A DNA stretch of 64,000 nucleotides, from positions 288,001 to 352,000 of the forward strand of contig JAHQJS010000006.1 of NCBI GenBank assembly GCA_019057385.1. Direction: 5' to 3'. A program made the position numbers and the translations under genes. Position 1 is the first letter of the stretch; each line of letters begins with the position of its first letter. This DNA is from Candidatus Borrarchaeum weybense. GTDB lineage: Archaea; Asgardarchaeota; Sifarchaeia; Borrarchaeales; Borrarchaeaceae. This document shows, one piece after another, positions 33,987-40,421 of this stretch. The notes under the pieces are model-generated. The model was not told the origin of the DNA, did no database searches, and was given only the letters and a program-made list of their open reading frames with translations.

Positions 33987-36848
33987 TTATAATTCTAAGC
34001 TTTGGAAGCGTTCCTGAGTCAAAGCCTTGAATATGGCGACGTCTTTGATGGTTTGTGTTATTGATTCGCTAATGACTTGCGAACGTCCTCCTTGTTTTGT
34101 GATATGAAACACAGCGTCAGCTACACGCTCAAACTCAGAGTCATGAGTTACGACCAAAGTTTGTTTGGTGGGACGCGTCCGTTCGAATACCATGACAAGG
34201 TCTTTTCGGCGCTGTGTGTCAAGCATCGAGGTTGGTTCGTCTAAGATGAGAATATCTTGATTAGCTAACAAACGAGCAATTGCCATCCTGATAGAAATGC
34301 AAGCGATCACTTGTTCCCCTCCGCTCAACATGATTAGCGGTTCCGCTCGTCCTGAACGATGGATGAGCAAGTCGTAATCTTCCGTAATGGTAATTTTTTC
34401 GTACTCATCATTTCCTATTAGGTACGTGAAAATCTCCGTAGCATACTCAGATATTTCGTCCACATATTGCGTTCTAAGTATGGGAACAATTTCACGGCAG
34501 AACTGACGAACAATCGTAGCACTCTCGTATTTTAATTTCTCGGTATCTAATTTCGAGTCGATCCCTTTTAATTCTTTCATTTTCTCTTCGAGATCATGAA
34601 TACGATCCTCTTTTTCTGGAATCGATTTTTTGGCAAGGAAATCGATCTTTGTTTTTAATTCAGTTTGTTTGTGTTTTAAATTGTCTAATTCCTCTTCTAG
34701 TCGCTGGAATTCCGCGGAGTCAAACCTCTTTTGAAGGACATCTAATTGTTCTTTAGTTTTAGTATATTCGTCTTCGCATGCTTTATTCTCGCTACATTGC
34801 TTTTTTAAGTTTGAAATGTCAGATATGAGCAATATCAGTTTTTTGTATTGTTCTTCTTTCTCCTCTAATTGCTTTTTGTCCTCTGTGAGTTTTTTTTCGT
34901 CGAATTCCATTTCTAATTTCTTATATTGCTCCCGAAGGGTGTTGATTTCATTAGTACGGATTTTTATGGTTTCTTTGAGTTCAACTATCTGATGATACTC
35001 TTTCAGCATCTCTTTTTCAGAATTCAATCTCTCATACAACTGTTTAATTTTCTGATTGACCTCTTGAGTATTTATATCGCTCATTGGCAAATTTTCTAAA
35101 TTTTGCTGAGCGGTTTGCAATTCAGTTGTAAATTCTTCGATATTTGATTTTATAGACTCTATTTCTGAAACAATCAGGGAGAGTTTCGAAAACTTGCTTC
35201 TCTTGTTTTGCAAGTCTTCCATCACTTTTTTAGCGCTTTCTAGGGCATCTTCAATTAGTGCTTTCTTTTCTTCGATTTCTTGTTCCTTTATTTTAAGTTG
35301 TTCGATGAGATCATTTGATTCCTGAATAATTTTATTTTTGTGAGTACCTGTAACTTTTTGCTTACACTTTGGACAAGTTACGCCAGTTTTCAATTGTTCT
35401 ATCTCAAGTAATTCTTCATTAATTTCTTCAACTTTCTTTTGGACTTGATGTAGTTGATTACTTTCTTGTTCCCTTGTTGTCAAGAACTGTTCTATTTGCT
35501 GTTCAATCTTCTGTATTTCATTTTCAAAGTCAATTTCGTTAAGATTCTTGAAAATCATTTCCCAATTTTTTGATGATTTCGACGCCGCTTTTTCTTTTTT
35601 AGTGAGTTTTTTATTATTTTTTTGGATTTCCTTTGATAAATTATCTATTGTAGTTTTAAACTCAGTTCTACTGGTCTCGATTTCTTGAATTTCCTTTCTC
35701 AAGCTTTCAAGAGTAGCAATCTCTGATTCAATTGAATTACTCTCCCTTTCTAGAAAGTCTTCAATTTGTTCTTCTGAGATGGATTTTATTTCTGGTTTTT
35801 TTGAAACAAGATTTTCATGAGATTTAATCGATTTTTCAGTCGTTTTGTCAATATTTTTGCTCTCTTTCTCGATCTGTGCTCTCAGGTTTTTCAATTGAGA
35901 TTTTAGATCTTTTTGCTTCTCAATTTCTAACTTGATTTTTTCGGTAATTTCTTCAATAGTTGCTTTTTCAGAGTGAAATTGCGAAATTACATCTGCTAAA
36001 AAGTCGTCTTCAATAATCAGGGTGATATTCGTTAATTTTTCGATTTCTTGCTTGCTGTTTTCAATTTGATCCTTTATTCGGGATATATTCTCAAGTTGAG
36101 CGTCTTCTCTTGCAGTTAGTTCATTGATCAAGTCGTTGTCCTGTTTATACGATGAAAATTCTTCTTTTAAGTTTTTAATGATAGGTTTTATTATTTTTAA
36201 TTCTTCCTTATATGATTTCAATTCTTCTTTTAGATTTTTAAGATCCTCCTGCTCGTCGGGAAGTTTTTCAACATCACTAGCCCATTCATTCCTAATTTTT
36301 TCATACTCTTTGATACTAATTTCTGCCGCTTTTGTGATTTCACGAAGTTTTTCGAACAATTCTTGGAACGTTGCAAATCCTAGAAGTTTATCAAACAACC
36401 ATTTCCTCTTACTTGGCTGCTCCGAAGCAATCTGAGATATTTCCCCTTGAGGTATATATACAATGTTCCCGAATGCGTTAGCACTAACTCCAAGCAACTT
36501 TTCAATTTCTTGTGTGACAGTTTTTGACTTTTCGGCTACGATCTTGTTGGGATGACGATGAAGTGTGGCTTCAGAACCACTTCGCCTAATTTTCCTTCCC
36601 ACTAAATAACGTTTTCCGTCGACTGAGAAGGTTAGAGACAAGTCAGAAGATGTTTCCCCCATTCGGATCAAGAACTCTGCTTTCTTGTTCGGTACACTTC
36701 CAAATAAAGAGTACATGATAGCCTCAAAGATTGAGGTCTTTCCGGCACCGTTATCACCTATGATTATATTATGTCCTTCTAAAAAGTCAAATTCAGCATC
36801 CACATAGGTCTTGAAATTTTTCATAGACAACTTTTCAATCAATAGCAC
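33987..36848 (-). CDS. rad50: Rad50/SbcC SMC-like ATPase
   Basis: Walker A GDNGAGKT, Q-loop YIPQG, long coiled coil with CPKC zinc hook, LSGGE signature, LDEPT Walker B, VTHD. Confidence 0.92.
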   Translation of the reverse strand: MLLIEKLSMKNFKTYVDAEFDFLEGHNIIIGDNGAGKTSIFEAIMYSLFGSVPNKKAEFLIRMGETSSDLSLTFSVDGKRYLVGRKIRRSGSEATLHRHPNKIVAEKSKTVTQEIEKLLGVSANAFGNIVYIPQGEISQIASEQPSKRKWLFDKLLGFATFQELFEKLREITKAAEISIKEYEKIRNEWASDVEKLPDEQEDLKNLKEELKSYKEELKIIKPIIKNLKEEFSSYKQDNDLINELTAREDAQLENISRIKDQIENSKQEIEKLTNITLIIEDDFLADVISQFHSEKATIEEITEKIKLEIEKQKDLKSQLKNLRAQIEKESKNIDKTTEKSIKSHENLVSKKPEIKSISEEQIEDFLERESNSIESEIATLESLRKEIQEIETSRTEFKTTIDNLSKEIQKNNKKLTKKEKAASKSSKNWEMIFKNLNEIDFENEIQKIEQQIEQFLTTREQESNQLHQVQKKVEEINEELLEIEQLKTGVTCPKCKQKVTGTHKNKIIQESNDLIEQLKIKEQEIEEKKALIEDALESAKKVMEDLQNKRSKFSKLSLIVSEIESIKSNIEEFTTELQTAQQNLENLPMSDINTQEVNQKIKQLYERLNSEKEMLKEYHQIVELKETIKIRTNEINTLREQYKKLEMEFDEKKLTEDKKQLEEKEEQYKKLILLISDISNLKKQCSENKACEDEYTKTKEQLDVLQKRFDSAEFQRLEEELDNLKHKQTELKTKIDFLAKKSIPEKEDRIHDLEEKMKELKGIDSKLDTEKLKYESATIVRQFCREIVPILRTQYVDEISEYATEIFTYLIGNDEYEKITITEDYDLLIHRSGRAEPLIMLSGGEQVIACISIRMAIARLLANQDILILDEPTSMLDTQRRKDLVMVFERTRPTKQTLVVTHDSEFERVADAVFHITKQGGRSQVISESITQTIKDVAIFKALTQERFQSLEL

Positions 36849-36859
36849 ATCTTTCCCTC

Positions 36860-39884: not shown

Positions 39885-40044
39885 AATATTCTGATGTATA
39901 TTCTCTCTCTTCGACATCTCCTAACTCATCCTCCAGGAACTTGGTCGCATCAATGCATCCTTTCCCTTTTACTCCCTTAACTTTGATGTTCACATTGCCA
40001 TTCGGGTCTATCATTATTTCAAGTTCGGTTGTTTTTACACCCAT
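39841..40044 (-). CDS. DUF2997 family protein
   Basis: I..DG.V...V.G..G..C...T..LE..LG.V.....TSEYY pattern. Confidence 0.85.
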   Translation of the reverse strand: MGVKTTELEIMIDPNGNVNIKVKGVKGKGCIDATKFLEDELGDVEEREYTSEYYEEEESHTRTRVSY

Positions 40045-40421
40045 TGTCTTCTCACCACAGTTAACTTAATTTCATTATTTTCTGTTAATGTTTCGTTAGT
40101 GACTGAATATCCTTTTTTCTTTACCTCAGCTATGATTTTGTGGTAACTGTATCGTTGCGTTAGTTTTTGCAGAAACTCATTTCTATTTATCTTAATCCCA
40201 TACCAATCTGCAACGATTTCGATTTCTCCTGTTGCGCTTTTTCTCAATCCGATGTCATAACCTCGCGATGTAGTGATTTTAAGTTCAGCTTGAGTTTTTC
40301 TGCCACCATAACCTCTTGTTAGAACTTCTCCTTCTATAAAATTATAATTAAGATCCTTTAAAGACTTCTTTATTGCATCCATATCGGTTAGTTTTGTTTT
40401 AATGGTAGTAAAATGTGACAT
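40035..40421 (-). CDS. DUF1257 (Ycf35) family protein
   Basis: MSHFTTIKT, RGYGG, YDIG, VADW and QRY motifs. Confidence 0.88.
   Translation of the reverse strand: MSHFTTIKTKLTDMDAIKKSLKDLNYNFIEGEVLTRGYGGRKTQAELKITTSRGYDIGLRKSATGEIEIVADWYGIKINRNEFLQKLTQRYSYHKIIAEVKKKGYSVTNETLTENNEIKLTVVRRQWV

Follow-up and report, generated by a model that had tools for sequence, protein, structure and literature searches.

Between the genes for ribosomal protein S2 (rps2) and isopentenyl phosphate kinase (ipk) of the Asgard archaeon Candidatus Borrarchaeum weybense lies a cassette of six genes, which specify a DUF1257 protein, a DUF2997 protein, a small product of 64 amino acids, an AAA+ ATPase, the Mre11 nuclease and the Rad50 ATPase. 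It is contained in a 64,000-nucleotide stretch of the genome, hereafter the window, to which positions refer unless a contig is named (Table 1). Mre11-Rad50 is universal, and the motors that assist it vary from one domain of life to another. The cassette is most likely an accessory, horizontally acquired unit encoding a second Mre11-Rad50 DNA-end-processing complex.

Gene content of the cassette

All six genes are on the minus strand, as a sequence-only reading of this DNA had described. The overlaps that it noted among the first four amount to 10 nt (DUF1257/DUF2997), 44 nt (DUF2997/small open reading frame, ORF) and 50 nt (small ORF/AAA). Pfam and profile matches bear out its naming of DUF1257, DUF2997, AAA+, Mre11 and Rad50, and of the flanking genes, rps2 on one side and ipk followed by fni on the other.

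Table 1. Positions of the cassette, its flanks and related radical-SAM genes
Feature	Position	Strand	Remarks
Source window	G000:C6:288001-352000		genome of 4.18 Mb in 8 contigs
Inserted block	33837..40861	.	~7.0 kb extra relative to same-genus genomes
Non-coding leader	40422..40861	-	arrived with the cassette; Shine-Dalgarno (SD)-like GGGGGTAGGA just 5′ of the DUF1257 ATG
DUF1257 (Ycf35-type) protein, 128 aa	40421..40035	-	Pfam PF06868, 83 bits, E 2e-23
DUF2997 protein, 67 aa	40044..39841	-	Pfam PF11211, 70.2 bits, E 1.3e-19
Lineage-specific small gene, 64 aa	39884 (ATG)..39690	-	overlaps both neighbours; judged by substitution pattern
AAA+ ATPase, 516 aa	39739..38189	-	PF00004 and AAA_lid_3
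AT-rich spacer 5′ of mre11, 105 nt	38188..38084	-	between AAA and the conserved GTG
Mre11 nuclease, 407 aa	38083 (conserved GTG)..36860	-	Metallophos; ORF opens at TTG 38098
Rad50 ATPase, 953 aa	36848..33987	-	NF002572.0 (PRK02224.1) match; CPKC, a candidate zinc hook, in coiled coil
Non-coding cassette tail	33986..33837	-	absent from G308; retained in L199
Flank rps2 (ribosomal protein S2)	41499..40876	-	PF00318; 89-97% identical in same-genus genomes
Flank ipk (isopentenyl phosphate kinase)	33817..33029	-	NF040647, 260 bits
fni, after ipk	31886-33001		TIGR02151, 416 bits
Radical-SAM genes	L161:14659-15231; L195:11439-12026; L157:11011-11601; L101:11614-12207

The DUF1257 and DUF2997 proteins score far above the respective Pfam cut-offs of 22.2 and 24.1 bits. 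DUF1257 is present as a single copy in the genome, and its ATG is the start common to its homologues; in the leader upstream no ORF has a homologue, and nothing matches Rfam. The structural model of DUF1257 (predicted local distance difference test, pLDDT, 91) has as its best fold match in the VIA wide search a KA1-like domain, a weak hit at a commonly reached level of Z (7.2), and a Foldseek search of the PDB with the same model returned nothing at E<=0.001. In DUF2997 residues G16, G24, G27, C30 and Y54 are invariant across 20 homologues.

Residues 239-465 of the AAA protein match the D2 domain of p97/Cdc48 (E 6e-55), and this active domain most resembles p97/Cdc48 D2, proteasomal Rpt and FtsH. 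It possesses the hallmarks of a classic-clade AAA+ domain, namely Walker A (G278-S285), Walker B (D337/E338), the sensor-1 Asn (N382) and a second region of homology with Arg fingers (R393 and R396), all of them invariant in 22 sequences. Residues 1-235 were modeled (pLDDT 92) as an AAA+ fold lacking a P-loop; the predicted protein is thus one with a degenerate first tier and an active classic-clade second tier.

Mre11 (PF00149, 48 bits) has as its best solved relatives the Mre11 proteins of P. furiosus and M. jannaschii (1ii7, 4hd0, 3av0; E ~1e-23), its match to the SbcD structure being weaker (4e-9). The motifs D-x-H, GD, GNHD, H and GHxH are invariant or nearly so in a 21-sequence alignment that includes the window protein. 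These phosphoesterase motifs, the archaeal closest structures and the location directly upstream of rad50, from which mre11 is separated by 11 nt, characterize an archaeal-type Mre11. The protein scores 124, 105 and 72 bits with the NCBIfam equivalog models for Sulfolobales, Pyrococcus and Halobacteria, below their cut-offs of 500-600; no Asgard model exists. An exact-sequence look-up of the window Mre11 found no record.

Rad50 matches the archaeal model over residues 4-919 (E 3e-77, 260 bits). Its N-terminus carries AAA_23 and SMC_N and its C-terminus an SbcC_Walker_B region, and the translated sequence shows Walker A, Q-loop, signature, Walker B and H-loop, giving the split ABC head typical of the family. 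The CPKC lies mid-protein; the Pfam Rad50_zn_hook domain is reported for the resident copy discussed below and not for that of the cassette. As read from these residues, the catalytic motifs of Mre11, Rad50 and the second AAA domain are intact. A predicted AAA-Mre11 complex gave an interaction score (ipSAE) of 0.00 in both runs (alignments A4 and A5), which, the runs being without controls, is evidence neither for nor against contact.

The 64-residue ORF was initially regarded as spurious, as it matches no Pfam family even at E<=10, exhibits no BLASTP similarity to DUF2997, and is without a counterpart in six more distant cassettes (L158, L159, L161, L195, L197 and L198), in which DUF2997 abuts the AAA gene. 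This view was overturned by a Joint Genome Institute (JGI) contig, L202, whose coding DNA is 84-86% identical to the window and which carries the ORF with its ATG conserved. Where the ORF is free of overlap with any other gene, L202 differs from it, read in its own frame, by 14 synonymous and 8 non-synonymous substitutions, a ratio of non-synonymous to synonymous rates (pN/pS) of 0.19, versus approximately 2.1 in the other two frames; for comparison, the values are 0.23 for DUF2997 and 0.11 for AAA. Since pN/pS is low in its own frame only, the substitution pattern identifies the ORF as a real coding, lineage-specific gene. Its earlier label, DUF2997-like, is weakly supported, the likeness being limited to a 12-residue hairpin (hhalign probability 41%). 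On L202 (positions 314-1844) gene calling splits AAA into two overlapping ORFs of 157 and 364 amino acids, which suggests a frameshift or a sequencing error.

The gap before mre11, given as 91 bp in the sequence-only reading, is 90 nt if counted from the TTG and not from the conserved GTG. Comparison with L202 fixes the Mre11 start at this GTG, which has an SD-like GGGAGTG upstream, and the spacer is therefore 105 nt. It is 56% identical to its L202 equivalent, with indels, the SD-like GGGAGTG region being the exception; in six related cassettes it measures only 15-35 nt. A sigma-70 promoter and terminator scan, of a type not suited to archaea, revealed no excess over shuffles.

Gain and loss of the cassette

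In four genomes of the same genus (G305-G308) the distance from rps2 to ipk is 177-565 nt. Comparison with G308 (L152) using blastn reveals 95.6% identity down to position 40862, where the match breaks off to resume at 33836, and the breakpoints in G305-G307 behave in the same manner. Because these matches skip the block, it represents extra DNA in the window genome. An assembly chimera was considered and ruled out: both junctions are bridged by contigs of another sample from the same study, and the ipk-side junction is also bridged in two other studies. The insertion is therefore no assembly artefact.

There are no terminal repeats and no target duplication at the block ends, no tRNA within 25 kb, and no integrase or recombinase among the six cassette genes, so that the features by which an integrative mobile element is recognised (recombinase, terminal repeats or target duplication, tRNA target) are lacking. 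Nor is a recent transfer visible in composition, the G+C content of the block (0.35-0.39) showing no difference from the flanks.

A 10.3-kb Logan contig (L199), 92-98% identical to the window, joins position 40771 directly to 34049, the two blastn matches overlapping by 4 nt at the joint. It retains 91 nt of the leader (40771-40861), the tail and the last 63 nt of rad50, a remnant still readable as the Rad50 C-terminus. On this sequence evidence L199 is a deletion scar, indicating that a sublineage acquired the cassette and a sister strain subsequently lost it. One sequencing run also contains a loose end which reads like the empty site of G308. The empty sites in four genomes and the scar in a sister strain uphold the description of the block as an inserted unit. 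One genus consequently displays cassette-bearing, empty-site and deletion-scar forms, which shows that even repair genes of core appearance can act as accessory, exchangeable cassettes in Asgard archaea.

Two further differences were observed next to the site: in relatives from two other studies a 19-nt insertion at the rps2 stop codon (window 40878) yields an S2 protein of 209 residues versus 207, and the intergenic region before rps2 has lost 45 nt in these relatives (window 41554-41600). The nearest named rps2 homologues belong to Ranarchaeia, Jordarchaeia and Odinarchaeia (57-62%).

The proposal that the cassette specifies a second Mre11-Rad50 complex is borne out by a separate nurA-herA-mre11-rad50 locus at approximately 821-830 kb of the same contig (G000:C6). 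This resident locus comprises NurA-like, HerA and Mre11-like genes, an inserted RRXRR+HNH gene, and a Rad50 with a zinc hook. Its Mre11 is 90-96% identical across all four same-genus genomes, and relatives of this type were found in 174 of 400 Asgard genomes; the window type occurs in 44 of the 400 and is absent from the four. A further, stand-alone NurA-HerA pair lies beside CTP synthase (G000:C8, ~92.6-95.3 kb; L013:6614-9282), which gives the genome two NurA-HerA and two Mre11-Rad50 pairs. The sequence-only reading also had the block occupying the position of mvk. This was rejected: rps2 abuts ipk in G305-G308 with no mvk between them, so the block does not replace this gene, which is located at C6:471018-471920, ~145 kb away.

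Several peculiarities of the resident locus deserve mention. The protein that splits resident mre11 from rad50 has 400 residues and an IscB-like domain set (L012:9263-10465; C6 ~824.3-825.5 kb), and its gene appears to have been inserted into the operon. Another ORF, of 242 residues and with RRXRR only, is situated just downstream of the resident rad50 (L012:5354-6082). The resident-type Mre11 matches in G307 (C135:6472-7749) and G308 (C69:72220-73497) each contain one in-frame TGA, which could be read-through past the gene end, a pseudogene or a recoding event.

Linkage, phylogeny and the nurA-herA position

Six other Asgard contigs share the order DUF1257-DUF2997-AAA-mre11-rad50, three of them in G014, G060 and G063 (copy 1) and three being metagenome contigs (L195, L197 and L198). 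Across the seven, sequence identity is only 40-47% for Mre11, ~32% for Rad50 and ~60% for AAA. The seven AAA-linked Mre11 sequences group as a single clade of the Mre11 tree (support 98/99), in which the window sequence is basal, and this clade is sister to the nurA-herA-linked Asgard Mre11 (89/98). The Rad50 tree contains the same clade with the same inner order (Shimodaira-Hasegawa-like approximate likelihood ratio test, SH-aLRT, 100). The AAA tree, a quick, midpoint-rooted one of the 80 most similar loci, shows the same order within an Asgard clade of 13 (SH-aLRT 99), whose neighbours in the tree are bacterial (Omnitrophota, Planctomycetota, Armatimonadota and Chloroflexota). All three trees agree with one another, and the genes have co-diverged. 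Recurrence of the linkage and the phylogeny of Rad50 and Mre11, both raised by the sequence-only reading, come out in its favour, the AAA-linked pairs forming one clade nested among nurA-herA-linked Asgard pairs. The cassette has, in addition, crossed between Asgard families and classes.

NurA is a nuclease, and HerA a hexameric translocase, to which Mre11 binds in Sulfolobus (PMC2288612). Neither was found in the window cassette, as had been noted from the sequence, nor in its six relatives, and both are present in the resident locus; the arrangement of a canonical operon, with herA and nurA adjacent to mre11-rad50, is thus not that of the cassette. All of the other window-type mre11-rad50 pairs examined (20/20) follow herA, and the gene upstream of herA is NurA in six of seven loci checked. 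Since the sister pairs are so arranged, and since the AAA-linked pairs nest among those of nurA-herA-mre11-rad50 operons, gene order puts the DUF1257-DUF2997-AAA trio in the exact position of nurA-herA in the sister operons.

Many nurA-herA-linked Asgard Mre11 proteins possess a lysine-rich C-terminal tail ending in a motif of the L-x-x-F/W type (alignment A5; L175-L187, L193), which is missing from the AAA-linked clade. This tail may be a partner-binding peptide.

In G060 and G063 no other Rad50 was detected at E<1e-8. The cassette may therefore supply the main Mre11-Rad50 of these genomes, which argues for a role in repair. With the same threshold G076, too, is without another Rad50, and NurA is present in all three. 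Among the metagenome-assembled genomes of Hodarchaeota in family f11 and genus g21, the window-type Mre11 occurs in 2/22 and the resident type in 0/22 at E<1e-25; most of genus g21 may be without Mre11-Rad50 or have a very divergent one.

In the nearest bacterial AAA loci Mre11-Rad50 is in no case close by; the AAA gene is alone, or is followed downstream by DUF1257 and DUF2997. The extra neighbour seen most often in these loci is a small radical-SAM gene, which recurs in Asgard archaea as well. The product (~190 residues; Fer4_12, CxxxCxxC) is encoded after AAA, or after rad50 where there is a cassette, in Asgard archaea and Bacillota. Its gene follows rad50 in G014 and L195 and directly follows AAA in the G076 locus, which has no Mre11-Rad50; the G014 and G076 copies are 50% identical. 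No orthologue was found in the window genome.

Function and comparison with known systems

The identity and history of the cassette can be given with high confidence. A bacterial-type AAA+ trio joined an Asgard mre11-rad50 pair in place of nurA-herA, after which the five core genes diverged in parallel and the cassette moved between Asgard lineages, entered the window genome between rps2 and ipk and disappeared again from a sister strain. The preserved gene order, the co-divergence and the shared gain and loss make it fairly probable that the trio and Mre11-Rad50 are functionally coupled. The five core proteins would then act together, with Mre11-Rad50 presumably recognising and nicking DNA ends. 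The clade of the AAA domain and the want of a nuclease-like partner lead us, quite tentatively, to a mechanism of protein remodelling. The AAA+ ring would be of the polypeptide-threading p97/Cdc48 type, the small proteins would serve as adaptors, and the ring would remodel or strip proteins at DNA ends, or recycle Mre11-Rad50, with no HerA-like translocation of DNA.

Several observations weigh against this interpretation. The bacterial origin of the AAA gene comes from a quick, midpoint-rooted tree of the 80 most similar loci, and the origin and direction of transfer are therefore only suggested. A Hodarchaeota subclade whose trio lacks Mre11-Rad50 is nested inside the Asgard AAA clade, and such a trio occurs in the same genus as a cassette. 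The nearest bacterial trio loci lack Mre11-Rad50 too; since it occurs without them in both settings, the trio needs no adjacent Mre11-Rad50. Nothing in the DUF1257 model resembles a nuclease fold able to replace NurA. Lastly, the window spacers are unusually long (101 nt if the small ORF is ignored, and 105 nt), so that mre11-rad50 could be separately transcribed.

The alternative that fares best is defence against mobile elements, in which a Rad50-like sensor and the Mre11 nuclease would attack foreign DNA ends with the AAA+ module as regulator or effector. Such a role would suit an accessory, unstable cassette, confined to one sublineage, absent from four genomes of its genus, deleted in a near-identical strain, and passed between Asgard families and classes; PADLOC, moreover, gives partial matches of Rad50 to LmuB (1e-36) and of the AAA domain to IetA (2.5e-26). 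We nevertheless regard it as unlikely. These matches cover generic SMC-head and AAA regions only, the IteA score being 79 bits against a cut-off of 510, and LmuA, LmuC and IetS are absent among the six proteins. Rad50 scores higher on archaeal Rad50 models over its full length, and both it and Mre11 fall inside the housekeeping, nurA-herA-linked clade. No copy of the cassette lies in a recognisable defence island, the neighbours being ribosomal, isoprenoid, transporter and metabolic genes, and in G060 and G063 it may be the main repair copy.

Chance adjacency would leave the trio with a role of its own, such as protein quality control or an Fe-S/radical-SAM process, beside an ordinary mre11-rad50 pair. 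The trio does occur widely in bacteria in the absence of Mre11-Rad50, the radical-SAM gene is the extra neighbour most often seen beside it in both bacteria and Asgard archaea, cyanobacterial DUF2997-DUF1257 is found beside ferredoxin (PMC4284462), and the free-standing trio shares a genus with a cassette. We consider this quite unlikely in the face of a gene order kept on seven contigs despite the low identities, three congruent trees, gaps of 15-35 nt in the relatives, insertion and deletion of the block as one unit, and the location of the trio exactly at the nurA-herA position.

Very unlikely is a direct analogue of HerA, a nucleic-acid translocase feeding the nuclease with DUF1257 and DUF2997 replacing NurA, which the exact positional replacement and a parts list similar in outline (a hexameric ATPase plus small partners) would favour, but the active domain belongs with p97/Cdc48 D2, Rpt and FtsH, a clade that threads polypeptides, the DUF1257 model displays neither a nuclease-like fold nor an obvious metal site, and DUF2997 has only 67 residues.

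The preferred reading, an acquired second Mre11-Rad50 complex with a protein-remodelling partner, has a bolder form, in which the Ycf46-type AAA+, together with DUF1257 and DUF2997, truly serves Mre11-Rad50 as a partner motor and is able to substitute for HerA-NurA. This we hold to be doubtful. If true, orphan families conserved in bacteria, cyanobacteria and plastids would acquire a role in remodelling protein-DNA complexes at DNA ends, and Asgard archaea would have a prokaryotic counterpart of the eukaryotic arrangement of Cdc48/p97 with Mre11-Rad50-Nbs1 (MRN). The in-place exchange of NurA-HerA for an unrelated AAA+ module, conserved and co-diverged over deep Asgard branches, constitutes a natural experiment on what partners Mre11-Rad50 needs, and through the cassette the DUF1257/DUF2997/Ycf46-type module gains its first functional context open to test.

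The papers listed for DUF1257 or DUF2997 concern cyanobacteria, plastids or soil gene expression and draw no link to Mre11-Rad50; in the literature searched, the module has no established function. A review of archaeal NurA from 2026, in which Asgard archaea are treated, nowhere uses the term "AAA". For this cassette we found no earlier description in the literature.

Among known systems, bacterial SbcCD is likewise a pair of nuclease and SMC-like ATPase, and the cassette proteins match its models weakly (TIGR00619, 65.8 bits; TIGR00618, 92.7 bits); they match the models and structures of archaeal Mre11 and Rad50 far better, and SbcCD has no AAA+ partner. With the defence systems Lamassu (LmuB) and IetAS the cassette shares the partial PADLOC matches and a patchy, mobile distribution, but their defining partners are absent, the matches are to generic domains, and the phylogeny of Mre11-Rad50 goes with the repair operons.

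Eukaryotic Cdc48/p97 acts at double-strand breaks. The cassette similarly places a p97-D2-like AAA+ and small proteins next to Mre11-Rad50, an analogy drawn from gene neighbourhood alone; it differs in that the adaptors are not homologous, the AAA protein has one active and one degenerate ring, and no ubiquitin-type system is linked.

Compared with the Ycf35/DUF2997/Ycf46-type module, the cassette DUF1257 and DUF2997 are clear members of their families, and its AAA belongs to a very large family for which sources use the generic label SpoVK/Ycf46/Vps4. Bacterial DUF1257 and DUF2997 are also found near AAA, although usually downstream of it, and the nearest bacterial loci have as partners a radical-SAM gene or ferredoxin (PMC4284462) rather than Mre11-Rad50.

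The archaeal nurA-herA-mre11-rad50 operon is also among the closest systems. The cassette Mre11 and Rad50 are of that lineage, with archaeal structures as the best matches and intact motifs, and the order and tight spacing are equal from mre11 onward. The cassette departs from it in having DUF1257, DUF2997 and an AAA+ of an unrelated ATPase clade for NurA and HerA, and in having been inserted into this genome as an additional copy, next to the canonical operon that resides there.

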